A stretch of 64,000 bases of DNA from a bacterium (lineage in GTDB: Bacteria; UBA10199; 2-02-FULL-44-16; JAAZCA01). The notes under the pieces are model-generated. The model worked only from the letters and a program-made list of their open reading frames with translations, did not search any database and was not told the origin of the DNA. The position numbers and the translations under genes are program-made. Of this stretch, positions 18,100 to 62,401 are shown one piece after another. Location of the stretch: assembly GCA_963674695.2 (NCBI GenBank), contig CAXXGI010000003.1, positions 768,001-832,000 on the forward strand. Direction: 5' to 3'. Position 1 is the first letter of the stretch. Every line of letters begins with the position of its first letter.

Positions 18100-18126
18100 G
18101 TTTCGGCGATCTGCAAAATTAGTTGC
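18100..18126 (-). promoter_or_regulatory. Shared alternative-sigma promoter-like motif (copy 1, glgA-like gene)
   Basis: GCAACTAA-N11-GCCGAAAC. Confidence 0.6.
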
Positions 18127-18163
18127 GTGAAAAATTATGCAGATAGACTTGTCTCTTGAATAA

Positions 18164-18192
18164 TCGAGATTCCCGCCTTCGCGGGAATGACA
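18164..18192. repeat. dRS3-like palindrome (single unit)
   Basis: TCGAGATTCCCGCCTTCGCGGGAATGACA = ATTCCC-N8-GGGAAT core. Confidence 0.85.
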
Positions 18193-18311
18193 AAAACCAG
18201 CAAAGCCAGCATTTCACGACAGGTTCTCTGTATCGAGCAAAGACGCCATCCTATTGATAGTATTGCACTATTTTACCCCCCCTTGAACAGCTTATGCCTT
18301 GAAAATACCGC

Positions 18312-18338
18312 GAAACATTTTCCCCATCCTGCCGATAG
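18312..18338 (+). promoter_or_regulatory. Shared promoter-like motif (copy 2)
   Basis: GAAACATT-N11-GCCGATAG, followed by AGGAGG RBS. Confidence 0.6.
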
Positions 18339-18362
18339 TCTTAATAGGAGGCCTCCATCTCC

Positions 18363-20834
18363 ATGGGCGAGAGTGCGCAGACATGCCGTTGGGCGGATTC
18401 GAATCGCGTCGTTTCGATGGTTGAATCGCTGCACGCGGAGCTCGTCTGCGTCAACCGTCTCATCCGCGATCCAAGCGGGATCGAAGCCGACTCGCGCGCG
18501 GAGGAACTCGAAGGCTTGCGTCAGCGTTCCGAAGAATTGCGCGATGCTTTAGACGACCTCGACTTTCACTCCCTCACGACCGCCGACCTTCCCACATCGA
18601 GTTCCGTCTGGTCCGATTCGCTGGGCAGTTACATTCGCCTCATTCAACAGTTCACGACCGATGAACAATCACCGAACGCAATCGATTCCGAGGAGATGCA
18701 GATCCTCTCGAATGCCGCCGCACGCTCATCGGATTTTGGCGTCCGCTTCCTCTTCTTCTCGATGATCGTGGAGGATCGAGACCAGAACCCAGGCACATTC
18801 GTCACGCGTTACGGTGGCAACACAAGTTTCATTGACGACTACGAAGCCAGCGCCATCGGCGGCGTGAACCTCTGCCTCAACCTTCAGGACAAACCGCTCA
18901 TGCTCCCCTGCATCGAACGAGGGATATGGGATCACAACTATGCGATCGATGAAAACGCGCTCGTCTCCGTTGCGCCCTCAGTCTTCCCGACGATCGCGCC
19001 AGAGCTCAAAAAAGCATTTTCAACAAAAGCGATCGAACAGCTTCGAGCCCCCTCCGACCCGGTCGCCATCATAAAAACGATGCGCGAGCAGATCACCAAT
19101 ACGACGATCTTCTCCCTGCTCACCTACACGCTCTTCGAGAAGCTTCGTACGCCCGCGGCGGCCACCGTCTTTCAAACCACGCTCGCAAACATCGTCTCGC
19201 TCGAACCGGCCTTGGATCGCAAGACCAAGCAGATCTACGGCACGATCATCGACAAGGCAGCGCGTTCCTGGTTTCCGAAACAGGCCGAGGACTTCGCCGC
19301 GAAGACGCTCGCGCATCTGACCCATCGCCAGCATATCCCTGCTGGCTCCGTCGTCGGAGCAGATGGAAACACCAACCGCGCCGCATCGACGATGACGAGC
19401 TTTCACCCGGAGATCGCCGCGGATCTGCTCAAGGGGATGCAAAAAGAGATTCGCGCCACACTTCAAGTGATCGAATCGGTGGGCGACTTCATGGCCGCGC
19501 ACGTCGCACAACCACAGCAGTGCATCGAAGGACCACGCTCACCCTGGGAGAAAACGCCGGCCAATCTCGTACTGATCGATGCCTGGCGCACAAGTTTTTC
19601 CGACGACCTGAGCGAGTTGACCGGGCTGTCCGATGCCGACGGATCGATCGAACACTTCCTCGATATGCCAATCGATTTGACTGACGCCGAGGGCTACACT
19701 TTTCTCTCAAAAGTACTCACCAAGACCGAAATCTCCTGGAATGACGCGATGATCACCTACAGCGAGCGCCGCGATACGCTCTCGCGCCTCTTCTTCGACC
19801 GCAACCGCGATGTGGATGAGGCCTTCGCTGCCGCGCGGGCGGATCAGGATGTGCAGTACCTCTCCGGTGGCGCGGGAGCATTGGCGGGACTGCGTGCACA
19901 GACGATGCTCGGCCAGATGGGTTCGGCGATCGTTCCCTTCTTCATCGCCTCGATGGCCGGCGGCTATTGGAACAAGACCTCGCAGGCGATCGAGAGTCAG
20001 GAACAGGATCTGCCCATTCCGGTTCCACGCCCTCGCTCGGGGTTTCCGAAATCAGCCGAGGGCATGGGTGAGACGGGGGCGCTCGAACGCTATCAGATCG
20101 AAGCCCAGGAATGGAACCGGTTCATCCAGGCACTTCCGAATGAGGAGCAATTCGCCTTCCAGGTCGATGAACCGGTCCGAATCGATTGCACGTCGGATGC
20201 CGATCTCTGTTCGTTGGAGACGGGTTTCGCCGGAATGCCGATCGCCGCAGCGGTCGATCGGAAGGCGATCGGGGATGCGCTGCGCGGCATCAAGGATCGC
20301 ATCGGAACGCATCTGCCCAAGGCCCGCCGACTCATCCCGGGACAATGCGAAGTCTTCGGACTCTCGGCTGCCGTCTTCGATCTGGCAGCATGGCGACGAT
20401 TTCAGTTCAGCGCCGAAACCAGCGTGCGCCCGTTCGTGACGGGCATCGATGCGGATGGGGAATTCATTCGACAGACACCCGTTCAGATCGGCGGACATCT
20501 CTGGCCCGCACTCGGCGCACTGGCCGTCGCCGCGGGTTACGGTGTCTGCCGCACCTACGCCATCCGTCATGGAGGAAAGAAGGATCCGCCCAAGGAACCG
20601 AAGACCGCTGATCGCGCTCCCAAACCAGTCGTCGATGCAAAGAAGCTCGTCGAACCGGCTGCCTACACGATAGCGACGCTCTTTGCCGCCTACATGGCCA
20701 AACGCGCCGCCGCCGCTGCGGCGATTGCCATGGCCGACGGGCCGGAACCGTTCGTCGCCGATGCACTGGCCGGCGGATTCCTCATCGGCTCCGTCCTCAC
20801 CTTTCCGTTCTATTATAATGAAGGGATTGAATAG
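18363..20834 (+). CDS. Orphan 823-aa protein with C-terminal hydrophobic hairpin
   Basis: Long ORF with RBS; no family recognised; Ala/Gly-rich hydrophobic segments and ADGPEPF near the C-terminus. Confidence 0.75.
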   Translation: MGESAQTCRWADSNRVVSMVESLHAELVCVNRLIRDPSGIEADSRAEELEGLRQRSEELRDALDDLDFHSLTTADLPTSSSVWSDSLGSYIRLIQQFTTDEQSPNAIDSEEMQILSNAAARSSDFGVRFLFFSMIVEDRDQNPGTFVTRYGGNTSFIDDYEASAIGGVNLCLNLQDKPLMLPCIERGIWDHNYAIDENALVSVAPSVFPTIAPELKKAFSTKAIEQLRAPSDPVAIIKTMREQITNTTIFSLLTYTLFEKLRTPAAATVFQTTLANIVSLEPALDRKTKQIYGTIIDKAARSWFPKQAEDFAAKTLAHLTHRQHIPAGSVVGADGNTNRAASTMTSFHPEIAADLLKGMQKEIRATLQVIESVGDFMAAHVAQPQQCIEGPRSPWEKTPANLVLIDAWRTSFSDDLSELTGLSDADGSIEHFLDMPIDLTDAEGYTFLSKVLTKTEISWNDAMITYSERRDTLSRLFFDRNRDVDEAFAAARADQDVQYLSGGAGALAGLRAQTMLGQMGSAIVPFFIASMAGGYWNKTSQAIESQEQDLPIPVPRPRSGFPKSAEGMGETGALERYQIEAQEWNRFIQALPNEEQFAFQVDEPVRIDCTSDADLCSLETGFAGMPIAAAVDRKAIGDALRGIKDRIGTHLPKARRLIPGQCEVFGLSAAVFDLAAWRRFQFSAETSVRPFVTGIDADGEFIRQTPVQIGGHLWPALGALAVAAGYGVCRTYAIRHGGKKDPPKEPKTADRAPKPVVDAKKLVEPAAYTIATLFAAYMAKRAAAAAAIAMADGPEPFVADALAGGFLIGSVLTFPFYYNEGIE

Positions 20835-20847
20835 GTTTCTGCACGCT

Positions 20848-20916
20848 GTCATTCCCGCGAAGGCGGGAATCTCGAAGTACGTGAACAATCGAGATTCCCG
20901 CCTTCGCGGGAATGAC
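20848..20916. repeat. dRS3-like palindrome doublet
   Basis: GTCATTCCCGCGAAGGCGGGAATCTCGA...TCGAGATTCCCGCCTTCGCGGGAATGAC. Confidence 0.9.
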
Positions 20917-20952
20917 CCCTTTAAGAATACGACCTTTTGTATTGTACTCCGA

Positions 20953-22818
20953 CTACTCCTCTTTCGCTTCCGGCAGATCGACCTCGTAGAGACTGGTATC
21001 GATGTCGTTGCGATAGACGGCGGGAATGGCATCCTCGTAGAAGAACTTCTCGAGCATGTAGTTGGTGAGAAAGATGGCAGCGACGTTTCCCGCGATGTCG
21101 AAGGCATAGCGCGCGACGTTCTTGCCCTGAAGACCCTTGGCGACCCAGCGACAGCCCTTGTTGACCCAGCTCTTGATGCGACTCGTGCTCTTGTACCCCT
21201 CATGCCAGATGCGTTTGGGACCTGTGGGGACAACGGAAACCTTCGGTTTGAGCACGACGCCGATTTCCTCGGCCTGCGCGCGCAGATCACGCGACATCGC
21301 CTTGAAGCGCTCGCCGAATTTCGACGCATCCGCCGCATTCTCCGGACGGTATTTGATGAAATCCTCTTCGGCGGCCGCCATCATCTCGCCGGCGAGCTGT
21401 CCCAACTCCTGCTGGGCCTGGCGCGCAGATGCCGCGAGCCCCTTCACCTGGGCGCGAGATCCGCCGGCCTCTGCAATCCCTTTCATCTCACGCAGGGTAT
21501 CGCCCGCCTTCTTCGCGGTTGCGGCGACCTCATCCACGCGCGCCACGCCCTGCTCCATCGTCCGGGCCCATTTCAGCGCGCCCTCGCCTCCATCCTGAAG
21601 CATCCGCGGGCGTTCGACCGCATAGAGCCCTTTGAGCTGTCGACCGATGTCGTCGATGCTCGCTTCGAAGGAGAGCCCCAGACCGGCCTTTGATGCCTTC
21701 GTCCCCGAGGCAAAGAAGGTCTCGGGCGGCTGTCGCAAGAGGCGCAGCGCATCGGTCCGCTCGCGCATCCGGTTTGCCATCCAGTCAAACGGCTTGCGCC
21801 CGCGCCCCTCGACGAGAAAGTCGAAGGCGAGTTCGCCCGCATTGCCGCCGATGTGACCGGCGTTGGTAAACATCGCCAGCGTCGGACCCATGTCGCCCGT
21901 GGGACCGTAGAGCCACATCGTGTGACCCAGGCGTTCGAAGAAACTCCCTTCAAGATCATCCCACTTGTCCTGATTGACGAGCATCAGCCCCATGTCGAAC
22001 GCGGTCCACCCGAGAAAGGTCCCCGCATTGATCGCGAAGAACTTGCCCGCGATCTGCGCGCGCGTGGCGGGCATGACGTTGGGCCCCACCCAGTTCTTGC
22101 CGTAGAGCAGACGTCCCCCCATCGATGACGCGCGCTCCTGCAGAAAGGCCGATCGCTCGAGCATCGGCACGAGGCGGTTTTGGAGATTATACTGCACGCC
22201 CGTCTGCGCCAAGGCATAGGCGCCGGTCGTGGCAAAAGCACCGAGATAGAGGTTCTCTTCCGACGCGCCAACTTTTTCCGAAAGCCAGGTATTCCAGGAC
22301 GTCGGATAGCCGTCATTGGGTACACCGAGAGAATCCGACTGGAGCTGTTTGGACAACCCCCACCCGCCATCGAGCGCCAGGCGAAAAGCGAAATGCGCTC
22401 CGACCTCGCCGAAGAATTTGCGCATGCCCAACCGCTGACCAACAGCAAAGCCACGCGGCGGCAGAAAGCGCTGAAAAAAGCGGGACGCCTCAAAATCACC
22501 GGTGTTGCCGAACTTGCCACTGTCGGCGAAGAAAAGCGGTTTCAAGAAAAAGGAATTGCGCGGCCAGATATGATCGCCCCAATCGAAGGAGGGTTCCTGC
22601 CCGTCGACCGCATCGACTTCGAGCACAGAGCCGTCGGCTCCCATCGTCACCGCGGCCGTCTCGCCATCATCGATCTGTTGCTTCAGTTCACGCGTCTTGG
22701 CGCCGTCGAGCAGGAGCGTTCCGTTCGCTCCGACCGAAAGCGTCGGAACCCCCTCCCAAGGATCGGAGGAGACGCGCCCATCCGAAAAATCGCGCTGAGG
22801 AATTCGCGTTTCGCTCAT
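20953..22818 (-). CDS. Orphan 621-aa protein with hydrophobic segments and coiled-coil-like region
   Basis: Long ORF whose start overlaps the GH13 stop, AGGAGGAG RBS; Ala/Lys/Glu-rich helical stretch and hydrophobic helix near the C-terminus. Confidence 0.75.
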   Translation of the reverse strand: MSETRIPQRDFSDGRVSSDPWEGVPTLSVGANGTLLLDGAKTRELKQQIDDGETAAVTMGADGSVLEVDAVDGQEPSFDWGDHIWPRNSFFLKPLFFADSGKFGNTGDFEASRFFQRFLPPRGFAVGQRLGMRKFFGEVGAHFAFRLALDGGWGLSKQLQSDSLGVPNDGYPTSWNTWLSEKVGASEENLYLGAFATTGAYALAQTGVQYNLQNRLVPMLERSAFLQERASSMGGRLLYGKNWVGPNVMPATRAQIAGKFFAINAGTFLGWTAFDMGLMLVNQDKWDDLEGSFFERLGHTMWLYGPTGDMGPTLAMFTNAGHIGGNAGELAFDFLVEGRGRKPFDWMANRMRERTDALRLLRQPPETFFASGTKASKAGLGLSFEASIDDIGRQLKGLYAVERPRMLQDGGEGALKWARTMEQGVARVDEVAATAKKAGDTLREMKGIAEAGGSRAQVKGLAASARQAQQELGQLAGEMMAAAEEDFIKYRPENAADASKFGERFKAMSRDLRAQAEEIGVVLKPKVSVVPTGPKRIWHEGYKSTSRIKSWVNKGCRWVAKGLQGKNVARYAFDIAGNVAAIFLTNYMLEKFFYEDAIPAVYRNDIDTSLYEVDLPEAKEE

Positions 22819-25295
22819 AAACTCCTCCTTTTCTGCGAAACGCCGAGATAGTCGGCGGGGATGCCGGCTTCATCGCTTCCGCGCCGCTCCAAAATCACGG
22901 TGCGCCACTCGGGCTTGATGAGAACACGTCCGTCGCGAATATCGATGATCTCTTCCTCTTTCCCCGCGTTGCGAAGCCGATACCGTCCGTCGGCCGGGTA
23001 GAGGGCGCCCTTGACCTTCTTGACGCGCTCCGACGTCATGCGCTTGGGATCGGGCGCATGCGGCAGCAGTTCACCCTGTGGAATGGCGGCCGTTCCGTTT
23101 TCAATCTGATAGGTGATCCCCGTGGCGCTGTTCGTCCAGACCTGATCGGGAAACGTGATGCGCCCATTGGCACCGACTTCCATGTAGCGCTCCCAGACCG
23201 GGTCGAAGTAGGTGCCGGGAACGGGCTTGATGTGCCCCTCATCCGTTACCTGGTAATTGATCGTGGTGATCGGATCCTCATAGAACCCCGCCGGGAACTT
23301 GACCTTGAGTTCTGAGAGCACCGAATCGGCATCCTCGTCGATCGCATCCCCTTCAGGGCGGACATGCACATAGAGCATTTCATCGATATCCCGGAAGGAG
23401 CGGTGGATGACGAGCCGATTTTCATCCCCCTCCGTCTCCATCGTGCCGTAGCGCAGCGCAAGCATATTGTTGCGCGTCATCGCATTGAGCCGAACGCCCA
23501 GGCGCTCCATTGGATAGCGTTGAGTCCCATCGGTCGGAATGTCGAGCATCGGACGGTTATAGGGATCTCCGCCGCGACCGAACAGACCGCTGTGCCATCC
23601 GGCGTCGATCTTGCGCTGCAGGTCCGGTGCATAGACGTAGGGCATTCCGGGCAAGATGTACGAGGAGATCACCGCCTGCTCGTGTTCGACGTCGGAGGGC
23701 CATCCCCCGCCGTTCAAGAAGAGCGGCACGTCGTGGTTGCTCGTGATCGGGCAGAGCTGCTGCTGCCAGGAAAGCGGATAGTGTGACAAACGATCGAGAT
23801 GTTTGTGCATTGCCTCGAGCGACCGATCACGACCACCGAAGGACGTGCGCACACTGTGCATAAAGCCGAAATCGAAGAGGTCGACCATCTTCTCGACATC
23901 GGTCTGTCCGCCCAGATAGGCGTGCATCCCCGCGTCGAACATATCCATCGGATGGAGCAGGTCGAACCATTCACCGACGATCGGAGAATATCCGTCCTTG
24001 GCCGCGCGCATACGACCGGCGGAATTGAAGATGACGTTCTCCCAATACTGCGGATAGCGATTGCACTCCTCGGGATTGAGGACATAGAGCAGCGTGTCGA
24101 AGCGCGCACCGCCGGCATGCTCGGCCCAACGATCGGCCGTACGCAGGATGAGATCGTAGGCCTTGGAATTGCCGTAGACATTGAGATCGACAAGCCCCAT
24201 AAGCGATTGTGTTTCGAGCTTTCGCCAGTGGGCGCAGCGGTCGAGCGGAAAAAAGCCCCAGTGTTTGATATAGCGCGTATGATGGAACGCGGCGCGATCA
24301 AAGCCGGAGGCGAACGGGTCGCCGTTGACTTCCGTCTTTTCGAGCCCCAATTTCTCATGCTCTTTCCAATAGTCGAAGACCAGCTGATCCCGAAAAAACA
24401 CCTTTCCGCCATCCATCACATCGCCACACTCTTTGCGATAGGCTTCATACACCTCAGGACAGTCGCGAAAGTTTTCGTCGCCCACCGGTCCACAGCGCTC
24501 GAGCACTTCCGGCGTTGCCGCCTTCTCGATGATATTGAGCGTCTGTTCGAGCCCACAGTTCGTCCCCAATCGTCCCGCATGGTTCATGATGAGATCGACC
24601 TGAACCGTCATCCCCGCCGCACGCAGGGCCGACATCGTCTGTATGAAAAGCTCCTCATCCTTCGCGCGTGAAACACCGGAGCCGTAGTGCGGATCCAGCC
24701 AACCGAAGTTTCGCCCCCAGTATCCGTGCGGACCCGAGGCCCGCACCTGTTCGCCAGCATCGTTATAATAGGTCACATATCCGACCGTATTCTCCCAGAG
24801 GGGACTCATCCAGAGAACGTCGAAGCCCAACCCCTGCAAATAGGGAATGCCCTGCTCGACGCCTTCGAGGTCACCGCCGAAGAAGAGCCCGGGGCTCTCC
24901 TTTGTTTCATCATAGGTCGCCTCCATGATGAACCGGCAGCGCTCGCGTTCTGTTTCGGTCGTGCCGACATCATCACAGGCATAGGTGGGAACATTGTTAT
25001 CGGGGTTGCCATCGCGAAAGCGGTCGATGTTCCCCATCTGCAGGCCATGCGCGGGAAGCCCCATGGCGGCGATGCGATAGAACTCGATGGCAAATTGGTC
25101 GGTGAAGTTTCCAGCGTTATCGATATAACGAGAAGTCTCGGTTCCCTCTGCGAAGTCGATCTCATGGGGTTCCGGAACACCGGGGTGCGTGCCGTCGCGC
25201 ATCCACTTCCAGGGGACGCTCTGTCCGAACTTTTCCTCGACCAGGCGTTGGTAGTACGCGAACATCCTCGGCGTCATCTTGGTAAATGGTGTCAT
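22815..25295 (-). CDS. GH13 alpha-amylase/CGTase-like enzyme without signal peptide
   Basis: DRFRDGNPDNN, GGDLEG, HGYW, DLIMNH, RFD, GEWF, NHD, GGDPYNR; extra N- and C-terminal segments and Cys-containing inserts. Confidence 0.85.
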   Translation of the reverse strand: MTPFTKMTPRMFAYYQRLVEEKFGQSVPWKWMRDGTHPGVPEPHEIDFAEGTETSRYIDNAGNFTDQFAIEFYRIAAMGLPAHGLQMGNIDRFRDGNPDNNVPTYACDDVGTTETERERCRFIMEATYDETKESPGLFFGGDLEGVEQGIPYLQGLGFDVLWMSPLWENTVGYVTYYNDAGEQVRASGPHGYWGRNFGWLDPHYGSGVSRAKDEELFIQTMSALRAAGMTVQVDLIMNHAGRLGTNCGLEQTLNIIEKAATPEVLERCGPVGDENFRDCPEVYEAYRKECGDVMDGGKVFFRDQLVFDYWKEHEKLGLEKTEVNGDPFASGFDRAAFHHTRYIKHWGFFPLDRCAHWRKLETQSLMGLVDLNVYGNSKAYDLILRTADRWAEHAGGARFDTLLYVLNPEECNRYPQYWENVIFNSAGRMRAAKDGYSPIVGEWFDLLHPMDMFDAGMHAYLGGQTDVEKMVDLFDFGFMHSVRTSFGGRDRSLEAMHKHLDRLSHYPLSWQQQLCPITSNHDVPLFLNGGGWPSDVEHEQAVISSYILPGMPYVYAPDLQRKIDAGWHSGLFGRGGDPYNRPMLDIPTDGTQRYPMERLGVRLNAMTRNNMLALRYGTMETEGDENRLVIHRSFRDIDEMLYVHVRPEGDAIDEDADSVLSELKVKFPAGFYEDPITTINYQVTDEGHIKPVPGTYFDPVWERYMEVGANGRITFPDQVWTNSATGITYQIENGTAAIPQGELLPHAPDPKRMTSERVKKVKGALYPADGRYRLRNAGKEEEIIDIRDGRVLIKPEWRTVILERRGSDEAGIPADYLGVSQKRRSL

Positions 25296-25309
25296 AAGTC
25301 CCCTTATCC

Positions 25310-26308
25310 CTATTGACGCATGCTATTCGCCGCTTCGGCCTCTCGGCGTACCACGGCATCGGAATCCTTGCGCAACTGCTCGATCACGGGATCGGCACGC
25401 TCGGCAAAGAGCTTGATCAACATCCAGGCAAACGTCTTTTCCTGGCTATCGCTGCTTGTCACCATTCCGTTGCGTATCAGATACGCGATCGCCTTTGGAC
25501 CGATCTTGATCAGCGCCTCGACGATGGCGGTCTTCAACATGCGCGAACGCGGGAAACGATCGACGTACGCCTCCCCCTCCTCACTCAGGGCCAGTTTGAT
25601 CAGCTGCGGCACCAGCGCTGAGGCCTTTTGACCGTATTCGCCCGCGGCCCAGACGGTGGTAAAGAGCACCCGCGAGCTCTTGAGAAAGAGATGTTGGTGC
25701 AGCACCGGCAGCACCTCTTCGGGAAGCGCGCGATGCGCGCCAAGTGTGGAGAGCGCGGCAACCTGAAGAGGAAAATCCTCCGGGTGTTTATCCTTCTGCC
25801 ACATCAGGATCGGTTCATCCTCGAGGACCTCGAGCATCCCCTCGGCGATCTCATCGCGCAGTTCCACGTTGGCCACCGGCGTATAGCGCAGTTCCCAGAT
25901 CGCCGCCTCGCGCCGTGCGTCATTCTTGAACCAGCCGCTCTGCGCGGCATCGATGAGCCAGCGCACGCGATCGTGCTGAACCAGCTCGCCATTTTTGCCC
26001 GCCACAAGGCACAAAAAAGACCGGGGGATACCGGCCGTGCTCGCATCATCAAATTCCTCGGGGGTCACCTGCGCCGTTCGCGTAAGGCTCGGATCATCGC
26101 TCAAGGTAAAATTGAGCGCATTCTGGAGCGGGGCACAGAATTCGGAGAGCCCCAGTTTCGCGCACTCGGTCTGGCCGAAGCCTTCCGGGCCTTCCGCCGC
26201 CGCCTGCCGTACCGCTTGAGCCAACGGTGCATTCCACGCGATGGACATCATCGCCTCCTTTGTCATTCCAGCGTCCATCTCCTCCCGCAAGATGCGCTCA
26301 TCGTTCAA
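25310..26308 (-). CDS. HEAT-repeat protein
   Basis: Repeated LP.L...L...R..A..ALG-type helices (VPQLIKLA, AIVEALIKIG, D.D..VRREA). Confidence 0.7.
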   Translation of the reverse strand: MNDERILREEMDAGMTKEAMMSIAWNAPLAQAVRQAAAEGPEGFGQTECAKLGLSEFCAPLQNALNFTLSDDPSLTRTAQVTPEEFDDASTAGIPRSFLCLVAGKNGELVQHDRVRWLIDAAQSGWFKNDARREAAIWELRYTPVANVELRDEIAEGMLEVLEDEPILMWQKDKHPEDFPLQVAALSTLGAHRALPEEVLPVLHQHLFLKSSRVLFTTVWAAGEYGQKASALVPQLIKLALSEEGEAYVDRFPRSRMLKTAIVEALIKIGPKAIAYLIRNGMVTSSDSQEKTFAWMLIKLFAERADPVIEQLRKDSDAVVRREAEAANSMRQ

Positions 26309-26810
26309 GCTTCTTGCGACACATGAACGTGCAATTCAAATCGTCGTTGAACCAGATCTCGATATCGATCCCGGTCATCGCCTTGATCGCTGAGGCCACA
26401 ACCACCAGATCCTTGCGCAGCTCCGGACGGTCGGTGATATCAGCACTAAAAGATCCGCAGCCGTTGTCCAGCTCGCGGATCACATTCCCCTTCGCATCGT
26501 TGAGTTCGATCCAATAGAAGGTCTTGCTCTGACCTAACCGGCGAAAATGGTAGGAGAAGTGCACCGTGTGATCGCCATCGCGCACGTCAAACGCATACGA
26601 CTCCTGTGCCGAATTTCCCGTTTGATAGGCGGACTTGCGCATGGAGGGCTCTGCACAGCTCTTGACCATCTCCACAGAGTAGGCATCCATGTCGAATGCC
26701 GTTTCGGGTTGGGCGCAGGTCTTCTTAAAATAGGACCGCAGCTGACTGAGTATTTTTTCTTCGGTGCGATAGGACGCGCAGTAGCGTTCACTTGCATTGA
26801 AATCCGGCAT
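26298..26810 (-). CDS. Hypothetical protein (170 aa)
   Basis: AAGGAGG RBS before ATG 26810; stop overlaps the next gene. Confidence 0.65.
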   Translation of the reverse strand: MPDFNASERYCASYRTEEKILSQLRSYFKKTCAQPETAFDMDAYSVEMVKSCAEPSMRKSAYQTGNSAQESYAFDVRDGDHTVHFSYHFRRLGQSKTFYWIELNDAKGNVIRELDNGCGSFSADITDRPELRKDLVVVASAIKAMTGIDIEIWFNDDLNCTFMCRKKLER

Positions 26811-26830
26811 GACCCCCTCCTTCCATCCCC

Positions 26831-26857
26831 TTATCGCGGTTTCAGCGAAAAAGTTGC
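26831..26857 (-). promoter_or_regulatory. Shared promoter-like motif (copy 3)
   Basis: GCAACTTT-N11-CGCGATAA. Confidence 0.65.
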
Positions 26858-27165
26858 GCCCTTTTTCCTCCTCCACCAGGCCCGGCACGACAAACCAAAA
26901 TTGCACCAAAATCAGGCCGTTAGGGCATTTGCGCCCAGAGGTGTGGCATGCACCCGTTTGTATTGTCAAGGGGGCAAACGAGGGACTGTCTCTTGCATGA
27001 ACAGATCTTCAGTTCCGATCAATGCCAGCACGATCAAACCACGCCCAAGCAAACCGCTCGCACCACACGACCATTGTAAAAAACGCGTGACATTTCAGCG
27101 CTCTTTGAGTACTTCGCGTGCAACATCGAACAACACACTCGCTGCCGAGGAGAACCATCCCGACC

Positions 27166-28347
27166 ATGACGCTTTTTTCGCGAATCCTCTGCACCCTCCT
27201 CGTCCTCCTTGCATCGTGCCTCATCACGACCCGAGCAGCTCATGCCTCGCACGTCGGCTACGACTGGGGCTTGTATCTGGCCAGCGACGACTGGAACTAC
27301 AAGCTCACCTTCAGCGGCGGCGTGTTGCCCCGCTTTCAATACCGCAAACAGAACGACGCGCTCTGGCAACCGACGCTCGTCACCTTCATGGAATCGGCCT
27401 ATATCGTCGTGAAGTTCGATTCGGCCAAGGGGTTCAAGTCGGAGTTCACCTTCGGACACGGAACGGGTGCACCGGAATATGCAACCGTCAACATCGGTAA
27501 TGCCTGGGTTCAATACTGGGTCAACAAATACCTCGAAATTCGAATGGGCACACTCTCGCTGCCGCTCAGCTTCGGGGTCGACGGTGGATGGATGCTGCTC
27601 AACGATCCGCCCATCACCTTCACCCAATGGGACGGCATCAACAACTACGTCCCCTATCAGATCGTAACTCCGCTGCGTTCGAGCTTCGGTTCCCCCTGGG
27701 CCTTGGGGCTGCGCCTCACCGGAAAAGTCTGGAAGATGCTCTACCAGTTTGCCGTCATCAACGGAAACGAGAGCAACTTCATCGACAACCCGAACAAGCG
27801 CATGAACTTCGGCGGACGGGTGCGCTTCGATATCCTGGGCGACACCGACATGGAGAAGGAGACCGACTACAGCTACAGCGAAACGCCGCAGCTCTCGGTC
27901 AACCTCGGCTCCATCTATGAAGGGAAACGCACCGATCCCTACACCGGAGCCGATGTCAGATACTGGTGGACCTCGACGCTGGGCGTTGGCCTTCGCTGGA
28001 AGGGATTTGCGCTCACCAGCGAGGGCTACTATCGGAGAACGCGCTTCAATACGCTCGGCACCGCCACCTGGGCGCGCTACAAGCTGACCGATATCGGGTA
28101 CTATGTGGGGTTGGGATACTATATCATCCCGAAGAAACTGGAGCTGGCCGCCCTCGGCGCACAGATCATCCGGCAGGGACCCGACAACGACTCCCACCAG
28201 CTCGGCGGAAGCGTCAACTGGTACATCCACGGCTACAACCTCAAAATCCAGACCTCCTACAACTGGAAAGAAGACTTCGACGACGTCGCCGGCACGGAGA
28301 ACAACCACATCCATACCGTCGACATCTGCCTGCAAGCGCGATTCTGA
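27166..28347 (+). CDS. Outer-membrane beta-barrel porin (OprO/OprP-like)
   Basis: Signal peptide, aromatic-rich alternating strands, G.NWY..G.N.K.Q..Y, terminal Phe; substrate is inference. Confidence 0.75.
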   Translation: MTLFSRILCTLLVLLASCLITTRAAHASHVGYDWGLYLASDDWNYKLTFSGGVLPRFQYRKQNDALWQPTLVTFMESAYIVVKFDSAKGFKSEFTFGHGTGAPEYATVNIGNAWVQYWVNKYLEIRMGTLSLPLSFGVDGGWMLLNDPPITFTQWDGINNYVPYQIVTPLRSSFGSPWALGLRLTGKVWKMLYQFAVINGNESNFIDNPNKRMNFGGRVRFDILGDTDMEKETDYSYSETPQLSVNLGSIYEGKRTDPYTGADVRYWWTSTLGVGLRWKGFALTSEGYYRRTRFNTLGTATWARYKLTDIGYYVGLGYYIIPKKLELAALGAQIIRQGPDNDSHQLGGSVNWYIHGYNLKIQTSYNWKEDFDDVAGTENNHIHTVDICLQARF

Positions 28348-28473
28348 ATTCTACTGCTCACCATTTGATCTGATCACATCATAATAACGTTATTATTCCC
28401 TCTGGCATCTAAGACCGAAACGGAAAACCGATAACCGATTGGGAGAATCCGATATACCGATAACGGAACCGGA

Positions 28474-28701
28474 TCAGGAGAGTCTCCTGATCCGGTTGTA
28501 TGCTGCTCGCAGAATCGCTTTATTCTCCTCCTGTACTCTTGCCGGAATCAAGGAGAATGCGGCGGCCAGATCCAGGCCCGCTGCCACCTCCGCGATAGAC
28601 CCCATCGAGATCTGAAAGAAGCGCTTTCGTTCACGTGGTTGCCCCCGCTTGCCGTTGCCCTCCGCCAAGTTGAGCACAGCAGACGATATGGCCCTTCTGA
28701 G
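28474..28701 (-). pseudogene. Four-helix-bundle (23S rRNA IVP/TIGR02436-like) gene fragment, 5'-truncated
   Basis: LRRA.SS.VLNLAEG....R.RFF.IS.GS..E motif; in-frame TGA five codons upstream of LRRA. Confidence 0.75.
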
Positions 28702-28970
28702 ACGACGGTGTTTTCACCTACAGCCCATTCAGAATATCTCTCACGCCGATCTATCGGACAGGGCCCACCTGATGATGATGTTGATGCCGATGCTGATCGG
28801 ATTCGATCATCCGTTTTTCCGTTTCGGTGTCTCTGTTATCCCAATCGGTTCTCCAAATCGGTAAATCTCGATGATCCATGAGCAATGATGTCGAAAAGTG
28901 GTCATAGGCGACCACCACAAAGGCCGTTCGTGGTGGTCAGATTTTACCACTTTGGCGCACCACTTCAGTC

Positions 28971-41100: not shown

Positions 41101-41393
41101 CACCGAACATCCTCTTTACAGAGGCCTGGATACGCATGCGCCATCCCGAGCGGACCGAGGGCTTCGAGGAGAGGGCAGCTCAACGCTTTACCACCGCACA
41201 TCAACTCCTCCAACGCCCCCTCGAACCGATCGGGGACGCGCAGAAAAACGCCGCCGCGCTCGCGATCATCGAGGGATTCAAGACCTTCCTCGATGCCGCA
41301 CAGGATGAGAAGGCCCTCGAAACCCTCGGCGATTTCCTCGGCCCAGAGGAAGCGGCACAGATATTGGCCGTCGCGAAGAAGTTTCAGCGATAG
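38148..41393 (+). CDS. Orphan 1081-aa helical-repeat protein with acidic N-terminus
   Basis: GAGGAG RBS; three similar units ILPRITDDDAIERKQA / ISPRMHSNDRALREEA / IIPRINCGNAKIQRIA. Confidence 0.75.
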   Translation: MSSVIHHMTSLPFALAPDASETDVAFAYADEAMETEDFDASAFVAEGSDETGMAASSWGSEWHTATLLKESPAWVKTIPLSRRDMTPDEGGHRTTAAFAPPPPNTAVRRASEQDDRTLRMVIRNLMDDFNVHTSSSIDIRGRIIHALPWTDVRPFYMALLVRIAQDRYDGSAAQFKQVLQYAGSHWKQERRTILGADTFDYNDGHPLPSSVLADTDIHLNVRDTTQPFLDAILPRITDDDAIERKQAITALTLILESADAHGDKCWQRTIISSIRDFRHSQGFPASLLADIAIHVSHRDAIALFTDIISPRMHSNDRALREEACAAFTRVKRHADKHWHRNDIKRLEGGNSISNKQIISPSGDATSSNVSINIATVLNEAAPIVEGMLKESMSITSEIHTSFTNGTSAHTTHITLHPRHPSQKVDARISGPVRTLTDASQTSRLNNIIPRINCGNAKIQRIARDEFLGVLQEMHTEDNRTHSCAALTRLLNESSDLPRDFLIQIAALAPEGTFDSILFGFLKKNIAAQWDKNAPSPFPDQIPEGKTITAMIDIAFEPIEVYRSSLKQLTDIVSRGPKAAAEFDSVLDEHNFSHPLDGIYLAENHTLKRAFAGYLSQTRDTSYDAWHPLMQISTEARHSVLKPPFQQALSTFAKNNTSPHLIPLSVRLALELTPRTPHLTQLAHHLSHQQWDELAGLLRNSIRTFDDTARDTIAAEFLHAHNDRHFSMPNPCYAGALIAATQAETRAKLLRILIERRAWTEIQEPLNQLRAADTPDIDDLNAIVLQAAKTQTVPFELLETIPAAHEESKKWLDAVGFGQQGSVHEDPVRWYEINTAQALIGFLVKWTFAPSIESSPLSRFQAQREMRRAKTTLTELALAHARGEGHGVLTIRNVVNALAKSLDRDPVGDQIEEILEGESSEEALKTLLRSSLPTLLIVWRKRMQAMAFDPPLLHEAPPSPLRLFTDAASIRNRMDTLAAEQEEPLAPNILFTEAWIRMRHPERTEGFEERAAQRFTTAHQLLQRPLEPIGDAQKNAAALAIIEGFKTFLDAAQDEKALETLGDFLGPEEAAQILAVAKKFQR

Positions 41394-41489: not shown

Positions 41490-41560
41490 TGTCATTCCCG
41501 CGAAGGCGGGAATCTCGAAGCACTTGATAAATCGAGATTCCCGCCTTCGCGGGAATGACA
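41490..41560. repeat. dRS3-like palindrome doublet
   Basis: Arms identical to those at 20848-20916, different loop. Confidence 0.9.
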
Positions 41561-43601: not shown

Positions 43602-43610
43602 GGAACCTCC

Positions 43611-43641
43611 GTAACTCGTAACTCGTAACTCGTAACTCGTA
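43611..43641. repeat. (GTAACTC)4 heptamer tract abutting the HAD RBS
   Basis: gtaactc x4 plus gta. Confidence 0.9.
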
Positions 43642-48092: not shown

Positions 48093-48253
48093 GAGAGCGC
48101 CTTCGTAACCGTCACCAGGGGCATTGTCAACGACAGCGCGTCGCAGAACGCAATCCCACAGCCGATGCCACGGTTTTGCCATCCCTTCCCACACCGCCCC
48201 TTCGAAGGAATTTGGAAATGCCATTATAATTCAAGCGATTAGAAACGACTCCC

Positions 48254-49637: not shown

Positions 49638-49665
49638 CAGCCACTATCAGAAAGGAACCCTCATC

Positions 49666-50406: not shown

Positions 50407-50409
50407 GGC

Positions 50410-50465: not shown

Positions 50466-50467
50466 GC

Positions 50468-55261: not shown

Positions 55262-55273
55262 GGAGCATCCTTC

Positions 55274-55897: not shown

Positions 55898-55979
55898 GTA
55901 TTTCCGTTGGACAATGACATTCTTGCACTCCCCTTTTTGTTCGGTGTAGGCTCTCCACCACCAAACAGGGAGATATCTG

Positions 55980-58105: not shown

Positions 58106-58202
58106 CAAAAGCGGCGTATAACTGTTAGGACTCCCCGGATCAGACGTGCGTCGGATAATTTCCAGCGTTTCGCGACAGAACAAAAAAGAGGAGAAATTCC
58201 GC

Positions 58203-60482
58203 ATGAGTGACTTCGATCCTACCCGTCTCACCCCCCCCTTCATCACCTACATCAAGGACAACCGGAAGGCGATCGGACCGGATCGGGCCGATGCGCTGGC
58301 GAGCACCATCGGCCACCCTGAGGCCGCCTCGGAGCGAGCCCTTCTCGGGGCGATGGCCTTTCTGCAAGAAGGCGAGGCCTCAGACCATTTCACCCTCCAA
58401 GATCCCGTGAGCTATCACCTGCTCGTCGGGACGCTCAACGGAACCCTGGCGCTCCAGCGTCGCGCCCAGCGCTTTGCGACGAGCGCCGCCGCTGAACGCC
58501 GCGTCATGGACACGCTCATGAGCATCATGCGTCGGCACCTGGATCAGTATCCGCAGATCTCCTACCCAGAACACGAGGCCGCCTATTTCCTCGACCATTT
58601 CCGCCGATTTTTGCGGAACCTCGGACAGGCCGCCAACACGATCGACCTCAATGATCCGCAGATCGGTTACCTGACGCAGATGAGTCCCGATCTATACGCG
58701 AAGCACGTCCTCGACATCGGGCAGCTTCGACAGGATGCGGAACTCATCGAACAGGCCAAGGATCTCTCGGTCGCCATGCTCGAACTCAACGGGGGGTTGG
58801 GCTCGAGCATGGGGTTGGATCCGACGCAACACCACTCGAAGGCGACGGGCATCCTCATCCCGGTGACCGTCTCCACGGAGCGGGGCGAAATCAAGGCCAG
58901 CATGTCGATCATGGAGGCGAAGATGCGCACGCTGGCCGCGCTGGGCCAAAAGTTCAAATCCGTCCGCGTCTTCCCCCTCAACAGCACGATCACGCGCGAT
59001 GGCTTCCAGGCCTTCCTCGACGCCCCCACGGTGGAGCAGCGCGCCCTCAGTCGCACAGGGCTGACTAACCGCGCCAACCTCGAGTCCCGGGGACTGATCA
59101 TCGACGACGAGATCATCCAACACGGCTTCCCGAAGATAGATACGCGCACCCTCCTGCCGGTGAAGACCGGAAACATGGATACGGAATTGGGACCAGGCGG
59201 ACACGGGCAGATCCTCTACGAACTCTTTTCTTCGGGGCGTTTGGAGGAGCTGGCAAAAGCCGGAACCGACATCCTCGTCATCGGCAACGGCGACGGCAAA
59301 CAGGCCAAACCCGACCCCGCCATCGCCGCGAAGATCGCCCGGGATGGCATCCCTGCCGCGATGATCTCGACCGATCGCACAGCGCTCGATGCCAAGGGCG
59401 GCATCTTCGTCATCATCGACGGAAAGATTCAGATCATCGAACGCAACCAGGCCAAAGACACCGATGCCTTTGAAGCGATCGGCTTGAAACCCGACGAAGG
59501 ATCGCAGCCGTTCAACACGAATACCGTCTATCTCAATATTCCGAAGATCATTGAGCTGCTCACGGCGTACAAGGAGGAACAGGGCGAAGAGGCCCTGCGC
59601 GAACTGCTGCTCCCGACGACGATTGCAAACCACAAGGTCGTTACGGTTCATGGCCAGGCGATTCCGGTGCGCCATCTCGAAGGCGCCATCGGTTCCGTGA
59701 TCCTCAAACTCCCCGGCGTAAAAATCTTCAACGCCAGCGCAGACGATCGCTGGACTGAATTCACAGCGGCAAAGACGCCGGGCGATGTGGTCTATCTTTT
59801 CGACAGCGATGTCTTTCGCATCGATGCCGAGACCGGCGAGATGATCCCGCTCATCGACAATCCGATCCCGCCGAAGATCAAACTGACCGGGTGGAGTGGA
59901 TGGACGATGCTCCCGAAGACGCGTGAAGCCTTCGGTCGCCCCTCGATGAAGGATCTGCGATCACTCTCTATTTCGGGCAAGGTCCATCTCCGCAATGCGA
60001 TCCTGCGCGGCCATGTGGAGATCATCAATGAATATGGACATGGCGTACGCCTCAATGAAGGCCCCTATTGCTCCAACCTTTCCTATGACGAACAGAGCAA
60101 CGGCAAAAAACGCCTATTGCTCGAAAACGTTCGCCTTTACATCGATGCCGATGGAATATTGACCGTAACACCGCTCGAGGATCCGACGGGCGGAAGCACG
60201 CCGCCGGTTGCAAACGGTACGGGCGGTGAGGGCGAGAAGGCACCGGGAAACACGACCGGACAAGGTGCCGCATCGGCCATGGGCGCACCGCTCGTCGTCG
60301 AAGCGGCACATGACGTTGAAGCCGAATTCGTCGATGATACCGGCATGCCGGACAACCTGTTTCCACAGATGGATACGGGAGTTCCACTCGGACAAAGCTT
60401 CGACACGTCGTGGGAGAACTCTGCCGGGCTCTATGGCGCGGGCGCGGCGACGGTCCTGCCCACGGCCGGAATGTACATCTAG
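58203..60482 (+). CDS. Eukaryote-type (UDPGP family) UTP-glucose-1-phosphate uridylyltransferase with N- and C-terminal extensions
   Basis: LNGGLGSSMG, P.GHG, N.D, D.KGG, FNTN, LE.A.G, F...KT..D, beta-helix-like SLSISGKV...A.LRG.V.I. Confidence 0.85.
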   Translation: MSDFDPTRLTPPFITYIKDNRKAIGPDRADALASTIGHPEAASERALLGAMAFLQEGEASDHFTLQDPVSYHLLVGTLNGTLALQRRAQRFATSAAAERRVMDTLMSIMRRHLDQYPQISYPEHEAAYFLDHFRRFLRNLGQAANTIDLNDPQIGYLTQMSPDLYAKHVLDIGQLRQDAELIEQAKDLSVAMLELNGGLGSSMGLDPTQHHSKATGILIPVTVSTERGEIKASMSIMEAKMRTLAALGQKFKSVRVFPLNSTITRDGFQAFLDAPTVEQRALSRTGLTNRANLESRGLIIDDEIIQHGFPKIDTRTLLPVKTGNMDTELGPGGHGQILYELFSSGRLEELAKAGTDILVIGNGDGKQAKPDPAIAAKIARDGIPAAMISTDRTALDAKGGIFVIIDGKIQIIERNQAKDTDAFEAIGLKPDEGSQPFNTNTVYLNIPKIIELLTAYKEEQGEEALRELLLPTTIANHKVVTVHGQAIPVRHLEGAIGSVILKLPGVKIFNASADDRWTEFTAAKTPGDVVYLFDSDVFRIDAETGEMIPLIDNPIPPKIKLTGWSGWTMLPKTREAFGRPSMKDLRSLSISGKVHLRNAILRGHVEIINEYGHGVRLNEGPYCSNLSYDEQSNGKKRLLLENVRLYIDADGILTVTPLEDPTGGSTPPVANGTGGEGEKAPGNTTGQGAASAMGAPLVVEAAHDVEAEFVDDTGMPDNLFPQMDTGVPLGQSFDTSWENSAGLYGAGAATVLPTAGMYI

Positions 60483-60484
60483 GG

Positions 60485-60555
60485 TGTCATTCCCGCGAAG
60501 GCGGGAATCTCGCTTCTTACGGCACATCGAGATCCCCGCTTTCGCGGGGATGACA
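60485..60555. repeat. dRS3-like palindrome doublet
   Basis: TGTCATTCCCGCGAAGGCGGGAATCTCG...CGAGATCCCCGCTTTCGCGGGGATGACA, starting just after the stop codon. Confidence 0.9.
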
Positions 60556-60578
60556 AAGGCAACGTTCGTCATATTTCT

Positions 60579-60608
60579 ACGGCCTCCCGCTCTTCGGGGG
60601 GCCGTTTT
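60579..60608 (+). terminator. Intrinsic terminator
   Basis: ACGGCCTCCC-gctcttc-GGGGGGCCGT followed by TTT. Confidence 0.65.
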
Positions 60609-60682
60609 CGTTTCTGCCCCCCCTTGCGTTTCGGGATGCGTTTCAATAGGGTTGCAGCCGAAACTCAGGACAAGGAGCCCTC

Positions 60683-62353
60683 ATGAAGATCGTCGAATGC
60701 GTTCCCAATTTTAGCGAAGGATGCGACCCCGCCATCATCGAAGCGATCGCGGATGCCGTGCGCGTCATTTCCGGCGTGGAGTTGCTCGACGTCGATCCGG
60801 GGGCGGCGACCAACCGCACCGTCTTCACCTTCGCCGGCCAGCCCGAAGCGGTACTGGAAGCAGCCTTCCAGGCGATCAAGACGGGCTCCGCGCTCATCGA
60901 CATGCGTCACCATAAGGGAGAACACGCGCGCCAGGGGGCCTGCGATGTCTGCCCCTTCGTGCCCATCTCCGACATGACGATGAAAGAATGCGTGGAGCTG
61001 GCCAAGAAGCTCGGCGCGCGCGTCGGCGAAGAGCTGGGCATTCCGGTCTATCTCTATGCCGAGGCGGCACAGCGGCCGGAGCGCGTGCGGCTGCCCGACA
61101 TCCGCGTCGGCGAATACGAAGCCCTTGAGGAGAAGCTGAAAAAACCGGAGTTCAAGCCCGATTTCGGCCCGACCGCCTTCAACGCCAAGGCAGGCGCCAC
61201 CGCCATCGGCGCACGCAACTTCCTCATCGCCTACAACATCAATTTGAACTCGACGAGCGTGAAGGTCGCCAAGGAGATCGCCTTCACCATTCGCGAGACC
61301 GGACGCCTCAAGCGCGACGCGGAGGGCAATCCCATCGTGAAATCGGACGGCACGAAGGAACGCGAGCCGGGGATGTTCACCGGCGTGCAAGGAACCGGCT
61401 GGCTCATCCCCGAGTACAACTGCGCGCAGATCACCGTGAATATCCTCGATCTGGATGCCGCACCCGTCCACCGTGTCTTCGACGCCTGTTGCGAACTGGC
61501 CACAAAACTCGGCGCGCGCGTGACCGGCAGCGAGGTCGTCGGGATGCTCCCCAAGCGCGTCCTCGTGGAGGCCGGCCTCTACTTCCTCACGAAACAGAAC
61601 GCCTCGACGGGGGCATCGGAAGCGGAGATCATCCGCACCGGTATCCGCTCGCTGGGGCTCAGCGATGTCGCCCCCTTCGATCCGCAGCAGAAGATCATCG
61701 AGGAGCGGTTCAAAAAGGCGGCACCGCTGGCGAACATGACGCTCATCGGCTTCACGCATGAACTCGCATCGAACTCCCCTGCCCCCGGCGGCGGATCGGT
61801 GGCAGCCCTTGCCGGTGCCCTCTCCGGCGCCCTCTCCTCGATGGTCGCCGCACTCACCTTCGAGAAAAAGGGATTCGAGGAGCATCGCGAGGAGATGGAG
61901 CGCGTGGGCGTCGAAGCACATGCACTCGTGGCCCAACAGCTCGCCGCGATCGATGACGACACCGACGCCTTCAACGCCGTGATGGACTGCTTTTCGATGC
62001 CGAAGCAGACCGACGAGCAGAAGGCCGCACGCACAGCCGCCATCGAAGAGGCCAACAAGAAGGCCACGCTCGAACCGCTGGGCACGCTCGAACGTGCGCC
62101 GGCGATGCTGGATCTGGCCAAGGCCGTCGCCGAACGCGGCAACCCGAACTCCCTCTCCGATGCCGGGGTGGCCGGCCTCATGGCCCGAGCTGCCGCCTGG
62201 GGCGCCTATTATAATGTTCTCATCAACCTGCAGGGGATTGCGGATGCGGCGTGGACGAAGGAGACCCGAAACCGTGCTGAACAAGCCCTCGCACAGGTCA
62301 CCGAGAAGGCCGTCGCGGTGGAAGCGTCTCTCACCACCGCGTTGCAGGGCTGA
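60683..62353 (+). CDS. ftcD: Bifunctional glutamate formimidoyltransferase / cyclodeaminase
   Basis: VECVPNFSEG, NRTV.T, H.GEH.R.GA.DV.PF.P, GAR.FLIAYN, SPAPGGGS, NV.INL. Confidence 0.95.
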   Translation: MKIVECVPNFSEGCDPAIIEAIADAVRVISGVELLDVDPGAATNRTVFTFAGQPEAVLEAAFQAIKTGSALIDMRHHKGEHARQGACDVCPFVPISDMTMKECVELAKKLGARVGEELGIPVYLYAEAAQRPERVRLPDIRVGEYEALEEKLKKPEFKPDFGPTAFNAKAGATAIGARNFLIAYNINLNSTSVKVAKEIAFTIRETGRLKRDAEGNPIVKSDGTKEREPGMFTGVQGTGWLIPEYNCAQITVNILDLDAAPVHRVFDACCELATKLGARVTGSEVVGMLPKRVLVEAGLYFLTKQNASTGASEAEIIRTGIRSLGLSDVAPFDPQQKIIEERFKKAAPLANMTLIGFTHELASNSPAPGGGSVAALAGALSGALSSMVAALTFEKKGFEEHREEMERVGVEAHALVAQQLAAIDDDTDAFNAVMDCFSMPKQTDEQKAARTAAIEEANKKATLEPLGTLERAPAMLDLAKAVAERGNPNSLSDAGVAGLMARAAAWGAYYNVLINLQGIADAAWTKETRNRAEQALAQVTEKAVAVEASLTTALQG

Positions 62354-62374
62354 GGAATGCCGTTGAAATATCGC

Positions 62375-62401
62375 GCAACTTTTTTGGCCTGTCGCCGATA
62401 T
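62375..62401 (+). promoter_or_regulatory. Shared promoter-like motif (copy 6)
   Basis: GCAACTTT-N11-GCCGATAT, 10 nt before ATG 62412. Confidence 0.65.

Follow-up and report, generated by a model that had tools for sequence, protein, structure and literature searches.

A bipartite motif, CG(C/A)AAC-N16-CGA(T/A)A (CGMAAC-N16-CGAWA), occurs six times in a 64-kb stretch of bacterial DNA (GenBank contig CAXXGI010000003.1, positions 768,001 to 832,000 of the forward strand), which we refer to as the window and whose first letter is position 1 for all coordinates given below. These six are the exact matches found on both strands; every one of them is intergenic and oriented toward the next gene, with 5-121 nt between the end of the motif and the start codon. 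Judging from the DNA itself, the sites are likely to be promoters of one alternative sigma factor of the sigma-70 family. The presence of six gene-oriented copies with fixed spacing had been claimed in an earlier note on this DNA, and we can confirm it: in dinucleotide-preserving shuffles the motif is expected 0.16 times on average and once at most, and none of 100 shuffles reached six. All six sites on the earlier list are real, but each of its coordinates was off by one base.

Six copies at a single spacing

When the distance between the two halves was scanned from N12 to N20, N16 yielded the six matches, all of them intergenic, and turned out to be the sole enriched spacing, with two matches at N17, one each at N15 and N18, and none at N12-N14 or N19-N20. 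Just one match among these other spacings is intergenic, an N17 copy at 60606-60633(-), which we judged to be a chance occurrence, lacking a T-tract and being directed into the 3’ end of the preceding gene. A GGCAAT-N15-CGATA sequence near a TonB-like gene was set aside as well, for its two mismatches and wrong spacing. Allowing for up to one mismatch gives 12 matches versus 5.9 in shuffles, of which one out of 100 reached 12; the six extra matches are at chance level, and comparison with the gene map places each of them within an open reading frame (ORF). Scored with a position-weight matrix derived from them, the six sites reach 28-36 bits, with the next best position in the window at 13.6, and leave-one-out matrices still give the sites scores of 10.8-29.8. 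All six furthermore fall within the promoter zone, which we define as non-coding DNA that precedes a start codon of the same strand by at most 150 nt. This zone makes up 1.9% of all positions in a window that is 93.5% coding.

The pattern was originally fitted to the same six sites, and therefore tests independent of it were run. In a pattern-free search through the 24 upstream regions of at least 40 nt, in which all 5-N(13-20)-5 dyads were counted, the top dyad was GCAAC-N16-CGATA, present in four regions; this count was reached in 0/100 shuffles, the maxima of which were two (98 times) or three (twice). As a further control on real DNA, 327,948 nt from 119 unrelated bacterial loci were searched, in which the motif was matched twice. 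The 147-nt regions around the six copies align at the motif only, and no pair of the downstream proteins is related at E<0.01, save for the GH13 domains that the 826-aa protein discussed below has in common with a 636-aa amylase and TreY. Because both flanks and downstream proteins are unrelated, the copies did not arise from duplication. Spread over 44 kb of the window, the motif precedes six of the 24 upstream regions. The remaining 18 include those of rlmN, the PNP gene, a response regulator, the FTCD gene and transporter genes, and the earlier statement that the motif does not stand before housekeeping genes thus holds within this window. A literature search with the motif strings returned nothing relevant.

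Site 1 (18101-18127(-), CGCAAC-N16-CGAAA) is the predicted promoter of a glgA-like gene, with 121 nt to its start at ATG 17979, and its -10 region reads GCCGAAA. Divergent from it lies site 2 (18311-18337(+), CGAAAC-N16-CGATA), which is predicted to drive an ORF of 823 aa starting 25 nt further on at ATG 18363, with a GGAGG in between. The other four sites all read CGCAAC-N16-CGATA. Site 3 (26832-26858(-)) is the predicted promoter of a four-gene operon that begins 21 nt downstream at ATG 26810, and here too the leader contains a GGAGG. Sites 4 (36676-36702(-)) and 5 (36791-36817(+)) form the second of the two divergent pairs that the earlier note had described, both of which are real. The former is predicted to serve a 698-aa ORF, 9 nt away at ATG 36666, and the latter the gene pair orf428/orf1081, for which two starts are available, ATG 36823 at 5 nt and ATG 36847 at 29 nt; since GAGGAG precedes ATG 36847, this is more likely to be the start of orf428. 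Site 6 (62374-62400(+)), the predicted promoter of a 504-aa ORF that starts 11 nt downstream at ATG 62412, comes closest to the consensus, with 36.1 bits. That consensus extends beyond the two halves and can be written as CGCAAC-TTTT-n2-GG-n5-C-G-C-CGATA. By eye, the DNA immediately upstream of each -35 half is A/T-rich.

Other elements are found close to some of these sites. Ahead of the -35 half, sites 4 and 5 agree in about 17 more bases (GGTTTTTTnCAAAT), and midway between them, at 36735-36749, lies the perfect palindrome CACGTC-cat-GACGTG (CACGTCcatGACGTG), a candidate operator for an additional regulator. Based on these features, extra regulators probably act at this divergent pair. A TTGAAA-N17-CCCCAT sequence overlaps site 2 (18300-18328(+)). 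In addition, CCCCCTTG, in which a TTG box comes after a C-tract, has six matches in the window versus 1.5 expected; three of them are intergenic (18278-18285(+), 26967-26974(-) and 60619-60626(+)), and two lie upstream of sites 2 and 3 on the same strand. We take the C-tract with TTGAA, and CCCCAT, to resemble the sigma-32 consensus. These CCCCCTTG/CCCCAT elements might constitute a second promoter class, or be due to chance.

A probable alternative sigma factor and its rivals

It is the combination of fixed spacing, strict orientation, a location shortly upstream of start codons and two halves that match known classes of sigma elements that leads us to read the sites as alternative-sigma promoters; from the same observations we infer the type of factor and the co-expression of the genes behind it. 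CGCAAC would then act as the -35 element, read by domain 4 of the sigma factor, and CGATA, sixteen bases on, as the -10 element, read by domain 2, where the T-tract following the -35 half and the A/T-rich DNA upstream may aid binding or bending. Transcription would start about 6-8 nt past the last A of CGATA. Once active, the factor would co-express at least six transcription units with ten or more genes, comprising the GlgA-like synthase, the four-gene operon with its GH13-like and HEAT-repeat proteins, and five further proteins of unknown function.

The earlier note had pointed to a likeness with both the sigma-28 class and the extracytoplasmic function (ECF) class of sigma factors, and this is borne out by the AAC and T-tract on the one hand, and by CCGATA/CCGAAA and an 8-N11-8 register on the other. 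Going by the promoters that PMC5758882 describes, ECF factors recognize a -35 element with a conserved AAC and a proximal T-tract, ‘tgaAACntttt’, a spacer of 14-17 nt, and a -10 element that starts with CG, usually as CGT but as CGAC at the sigX promoter, with tight adherence to the consensus. In the motif, AAC occupies positions 4-6 at all six sites. The AACnTTT tract, which some of the ECF groups have, is present at five sites, with TAATTTT at site 1 instead. The 16-nt spacer of all six falls within the ECF range, and CG opens the -10 element at every site, followed each time by an A, which matches only the sigX-type CGAC variant. Set beside the promoters of Bacillus subtilis sigma-M/W/X/V as given in that source, the sites are alike in the AAC preceded by G-n, the AACnTTT, the spacer, a -10 that opens with CG (CGA being found in the autoregulatory promoter of sigX) and the tight consensus, and differ in having CGATA or CGAAA where those have CGTA or CGTC. 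This class is the best fit for the -35 half and for the architecture as a whole, and an ECF (group 4) factor is therefore slightly favoured over sigma-28, although we put this forward as a tentative assignment that may well turn out otherwise.

Several observations weigh against an alternative sigma factor, or against one or the other of its two classes. None of the 51 window ORFs scanned contains a Sigma70 domain (Sigma70_r2/r4). Autoregulation, with the motif placed before the factor’s own sigma/anti-sigma operon, is usual for ECF factors; none of the six units has a sigma or anti-sigma gene, and such autoregulation was not seen within the window. A share of six in 24 upstream regions is high for a typical ECF regulon, and the A at the third base of the -10 element is not the usual ECF T. 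The TAAA of the sigma-28 -35 element is absent from all six sites, and flagellar and chemotaxis genes are absent from the window. Finally, the predicted transcription starts of sites 4, 5 and 6 lie 0-5 nt from the annotated ATG, or past it. With a start 6-8 nt beyond the motif, the mRNAs of sites 4 and 6, and of site 5 with ATG 36823 as its start, would have little or no leader, unless their start codons are located further downstream.

A group 3 factor of the sigma-28/FliA/WhiG type, whose -35 specificity has drifted from TAAA to GCAAC and which acts as a broad non-flagellar regulator, is the rival that survives best, even if we regard it as rather unlikely. Among the sites that PMC4183435 tabulates for E. 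coli FliA are TAAAGTTT-N11-GCCGATAA (tar), GCCGAAAA (tsr) and GCCGAAAT (pntA). The -10 core found here, CGATA at five sites and CGAAA at one, preceded by GC at three, equals the core of GCCGATAA, and both variants appear in that table, where the T/A alternative is seen at tsr and pntA. All six sites keep the register TAAA-N15-GCCGATAA of sigma-28, and with the 8-N11-8 arrangement of TAAAGTTT-N11-GCCGATAA, read at site 6 as GCAACTTT-N11-GCCGATA, the TTT tract is aligned as well. A density of six in 24 upstream regions suits a broad regulon, and there are precedents in the attack-phase promoters of Bdellovibrio and in Chlamydia sigma-28, which acts on late genes; both are described below. However, the bases that align with the -35 TAAA(G) of FliA, SigD and WhiG are GCAAC or GAAAC, so that AA alone is shared with this consensus, and the C-G-C and the final C of the -35 half are invariant or nearly so. 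Moreover, the window lacks not only the flagellar and chemotaxis targets known for this class, but also fliA/flgM genes.

Could the motif instead be the operator of a DNA-binding transcription factor, an activator or repressor, rather than a core promoter? A two-domain or dimeric regulator could bind a bipartite site of fixed spacing, and the upstream bases that sites 4 and 5 share, as well as the palindrome that they flank, would suit such a protein. The two halves do not, however, repeat each other in either direct or inverted orientation, and both match known sigma elements base for base, which makes this explanation improbable. The strict orientation of six out of six, at 5-121 nt from a start codon, likewise argues against it. 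Furthermore, a separate sigma-70-type promoter is not evident beside the motif: in the part scanned for it, 16001-36000, which covers sites 1-3 only, the motif-bearing intergenic regions contain no sigma-70-type consensus. Over that whole part the consensus has eight matches versus 7.7 expected, which is chance level and uninformative. A sigma-54 promoter was considered only because of the sigma-54 activator gene at 45108-48224 and was rejected, as the motif does not have the GG-N10-GC (-24/-12) pattern and differs in composition and spacing.

Still less probable is that the motif represents the general, housekeeping promoter type of this lineage. Six of 24 upstream regions is a large share, few true housekeeping promoters are present in the window, so that the absence of the motif before core genes is weakly sampled, and the sigma-70 consensus is not enriched in the part scanned. 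Against this stand the 18 upstream regions without the motif and, by eye, the TTGACA/TTGCGT-like -35 boxes before the UDPGP and FTCD genes, both of which make a general promoter unlikely, as well as a conformity to consensus far tighter than is usual for primary promoters. As to chance matches, or copies spread by duplication or a mobile repeat, we give these hardly any credence: the pattern was indeed defined post hoc and the window does have a dispersed repeat family, but no shuffle attained six copies, the motif also emerges when dyads are counted without the pattern, neither the flanks nor the downstream proteins are related to one another, and the repeat element (REP-like, see below) differs in sequence.

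Genes of the six units and of the remaining window

The six units hold at least ten genes, which encode a GlgA-like, a GH13-like and a HEAT-repeat protein and seven proteins without a Pfam family; alpha-glucan enzymes thus account for two of the ten. With a codon model trained on the recognisable genes of the window, the ORFs of the units score best in their annotated frame, which indicates that they are real, native-looking genes. The lowest codon-usage scores of the set belong to orf428 and orf1081, for which the annotated frame is still the best. The stretch 36001-40000 that contains these two has the lowest G+C of the window (0.552) and the strongest skew of A over T (0.177), hints of a more recent acquisition or of low expression.

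Behind site 1, the GlgA-like glycogen/starch synthase of 574 aa (16255-17979(-)) has Pfam Glyco_transf_5 and GT1 domains and matches TIGR02095 at 337.9 bits over residues 46-564, ahead of which it has a Gly-rich N-terminal extension of about 45 aa. Its best non-self relatives are 30-37% identical, the top-ranked ones 32-34%. The gene is directly followed by an intrinsic terminator (16191-16229(-)) consisting of a long hairpin and U7, with a folding energy of -28.6 kcal/mol (z = -6.85; 0/200 shuffles fold as well), and the unit is therefore monocistronic unless read through. The site 3 operon (20953-26810(-)), in which genes overlap or lie at most 14 nt apart, encodes orf170 (26298-26810(-)), the HEAT-repeat protein of 332 aa (25310-26308(-); Pfam HEAT_2), the GH13-like protein of 826 aa (22815-25295(-); Pfam Alpha-amylase) and a protein of 621 aa (20953-22818(-)); for the first and last of these no family was found. 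A single-sequence AlphaFold2 (AF2) model of orf170 was unusable, with a predicted local distance difference test score (pLDDT) of 46.5. PADLOC gave a single match, of the GH13-like protein to a GlgB-type model. At site 5, orf428 runs from 36823 or 36847 to 38109(+) and orf1081 from 38148 to 41393(+).

The earlier note had called the motif-bearing genes orphan and effector-like. The first label fits the 823-aa ORF (18363-20834(+)), which has no Pfam or NCBIfam match and finds only itself among 5.8e9 proteins, but not the 504-aa protein, which has 23 distant relatives. As for the second, no positive result supports it, the scan for signal peptides and hydropathy being neutral: signal peptides were found in none of the proteins of the six units, and a single hydrophobic segment only in the 823-aa protein, near its C-terminus. 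The prey- or host-contact phase that the note had proposed is likewise speculative. For the proteins without a family, Pfam searches at E<=5 gave nothing above noise and NCBIfam nothing at all. In the ESM Atlas, the 823-aa ORF has no usable match, and the 698-aa ORF (34570-36666(-)), itself without detectable family, reaches at most 0.80, which is chance level; a weak lead to Tox-REase-7 there stands at 0.76. The latter ORF had no match to phages in tblastn, and its best hit in a sequence search of the PDB has an E of 0.18. Downstream of it lie the genes for PNP, pfkB and treY (29386-34452), which might be transcribed together with it, although gaps of 117 and 153 nt set them apart.

The family of the 504-aa protein (62412-63926(+)), whose members are all-alpha and about 500 aa long, comprises 24 proteins at E<=1e-3 including itself, at 22-28% identity, with one repetitive match over a short stretch at 39%. 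An alignment of 21 of the 24, two short and one repetitive match being left out, shows invariant W202, W236, H302, F313, W353, H354 and F418. Twenty of these 21 members have no Pfam match, and one has TPR_14 at E = 0.006. The AF2 model of the 504-aa protein is all-helical, with 24 helices, a pLDDT of 77.4 and a predicted template modelling (TM) score of 0.62. A Foldseek search with this model against the PDB gave no matches at E<=0.001, and the best hits were designed helical repeats at TM <=0.25. It is possible that the set serves a storage or resting programme, which fits the GlgA gene, or export or host contact, which fits the helical-repeat proteins.

Elsewhere in the window, the motif is absent upstream of the glycine-cleavage genes, recO, a maltodextrin-type ABC transporter, alpha-glucan phosphorylase, malQ, the amylase, treY, rlmN, a Na/Pi transporter, a pyrophosphatase, a two-component pair and FTCD (formiminotransferase-cyclodeaminase). 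The same applies to a long UDPGP-like (UDP-glucose-pyrophosphorylase-like) protein of 778 aa (58146-60482(+)), in which the UDPGP domain takes up residues 323-617 and is followed by a Gly/Ala/Thr-rich C-terminal tail. This protein and GlgA can both be seen as ‘modified’ common enzymes, and of the two only the GlgA gene has the motif. A protein of 1038 aa (45108-48224(-)), also without the motif upstream, joins two domains in an unusual one-component architecture, namely a PhnD-type periplasmic domain that binds phosphonate/phosphite and the AAA+ domain of a sigma-54 activator; the activator domain implies that the organism has sigma-54. Divergent from the site 3 operon, the ORF at 27118-28347(+) combines a signal-peptide-like N-terminus with a C-terminal F, and its sole family match is a weak one to a porin (ExtI, E = 0.0098). 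These features make it a probable beta-barrel of the outer membrane, from a family not yet described. Nothing in the window was matched by Rfam or by a tRNA scan.

The window also contains several repeats. An element that resembles repetitive extragenic palindromic (REP) sequences, a palindromic 26-mer around ATTCCCGC-GAAG-GCGGGAAT, is present at four places as six exact copies and one with three mismatches: 18166-18191(-), 20848-20873(+), 20891-20916(-), 41491-41516(+), 41534-41559(-), 60486-60511(+) and, with the mismatches, 60529-60554(-). The copies are found at gene ends, either alone or paired in inverted orientation with their starts 43 nt from each other, and such pairs follow the 823-aa ORF (20847-20917) and orf1081 (41490-41560). 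In a scan of genome contigs, at least 119 loci carried the identical 26-mer; they belong to many phyla, and among the loci listed are Alphaproteobacteria including Rickettsiales, Bacteroidota, Dehalococcoidia/Chloroflexota, Patescibacteria, Fibrobacter, Nitrospirales and Symbiopectobacterium. Its flanks are not conserved, with no flanking column reaching 50% identity over the 130 copies listed. That so short an element is conserved exactly across phyla is odd.

Tandem heptamers of related sequence occur at 33441-33584 (pfkB), 43610-43641 (a HAD-hydrolase gene) and 1083-1109 (gcvPA). Read on the coding strand, those of pfkB (GTTACGA x5, CACAAGT x12, TACTCGT x4) lie directly upstream of the Shine-Dalgarno sequence and start, that of the HAD-hydrolase gene (AGTTACG x4.6) at the annotated 5’ end, and that of gcvPA (GTCACGA x3.9) immediately within the annotated start. 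Such heptamers might serve as a leader element to which a regulator binds as RNA or DNA, or they could form a tract prone to slippage. In the otherwise gene-poor region of 28.35-29.39 kb, two small ORFs of 67 aa (28474-28677(-)) and 70 aa (29004-29216(+)) are similar to each other (LNLAEGN...KRFFQIS...EV) and lie within a 118-nt inverted duplication of 78% identity, with arms at 28515-28632 and 29058-29175. Their products resemble ‘four-helix-bundle’ proteins.

Significance and comparison with known systems

If confirmed, the motif would open a way into the gene regulation of a lineage whose relatives are almost entirely uncharacterised. It would link proteins of unknown function with a storage-glucan synthase, and would point to the circumstances in which these proteins are active. 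Its mixture of ECF and sigma-28 traits has some interest with regard to the evolution of sigma specificity, though it does not amount to a new regulatory principle. A bolder and doubtful version would be that roughly a quarter of all transcription units, mostly for lineage-specific proteins, some of them possibly exported, are under a global sigma factor that is stage-specific and combines an ECF-type -35 with a -10 of the sigma-28 type. Were that true, it would suggest a two-programme life cycle that evolved independently of the attack and growth phases of Bdellovibrio or the reticulate and elementary bodies (RB/EB) of Chlamydia, in an uncultured, poorly sampled lineage related to the former Deltaproteobacteria.

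This placement is drawn from one gene. The RlmN of the window has relatives at 60-68% identity, of which the named ones come from metagenome-assembled genomes (MAGs) labelled ‘bacterium’, ‘Pseudomonadota’ or ‘Deltaproteobacteria’, and it is about 52% identical to RlmN of Desulfuromonas and Syntrophotaleaceae. On this one-gene basis, the DNA would belong to a poorly sampled lineage near the former Deltaproteobacteria.

Of the systems that invite comparison, the two promoter classes treated above each match a part of the motif. Unlike what is described for ECF regulons, there is no sigma/anti-sigma operon behind the six copies and the density of sites is high. In turn, sigma-28 promoters have the same -10 core, register and place of the T-tract in the sites drawn from PMC4183435, with TAAAG where GCAAC is found here. 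In Bdellovibrio bacteriovorus, TTAAG-N16-CCGATA was reported for 92 of 140 mapped attack-phase promoters, many of which precede uncharacterised genes, and the authors propose FliA as a global regulator (PMC3627812). With the sites described there, those in the window share the CCGATA -10 and the use of one motif before functionally mixed and uncharacterised genes, whereas the -35 is different and the register here is one base shorter. The two-phase life cycle is a feature of Bdellovibrio, and the RlmN relatives found here come from unclassified MAGs under the labels Deltaproteobacteria or Pseudomonadota rather than from Bdellovibrio.

The distal half of the hrp-box, the promoter element of HrpL, may read CCAC. 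In PMC4544800, HrpL of Pseudomonas syringae is an ECF sigma factor whose box stands before scattered, virulence-associated genes and is given as GGAAC(C/T) with a distal TCA(T/G), which differs from the motif here. The two are alike in that a conserved bipartite box precedes scattered, poorly conserved genes together with some metabolic ones; a secretion system is not present within this window, nor are signs of secretion. Lastly, the -35 element of the Chlamydia promoters differs from ours, and intracellular life and a developmental cycle are features of Chlamydia. What that system has in common with the reading of the six sites as promoters of an alternative sigma factor is that, in a bacterium without flagella, a sigma-28-type factor controls stage-specific late genes.

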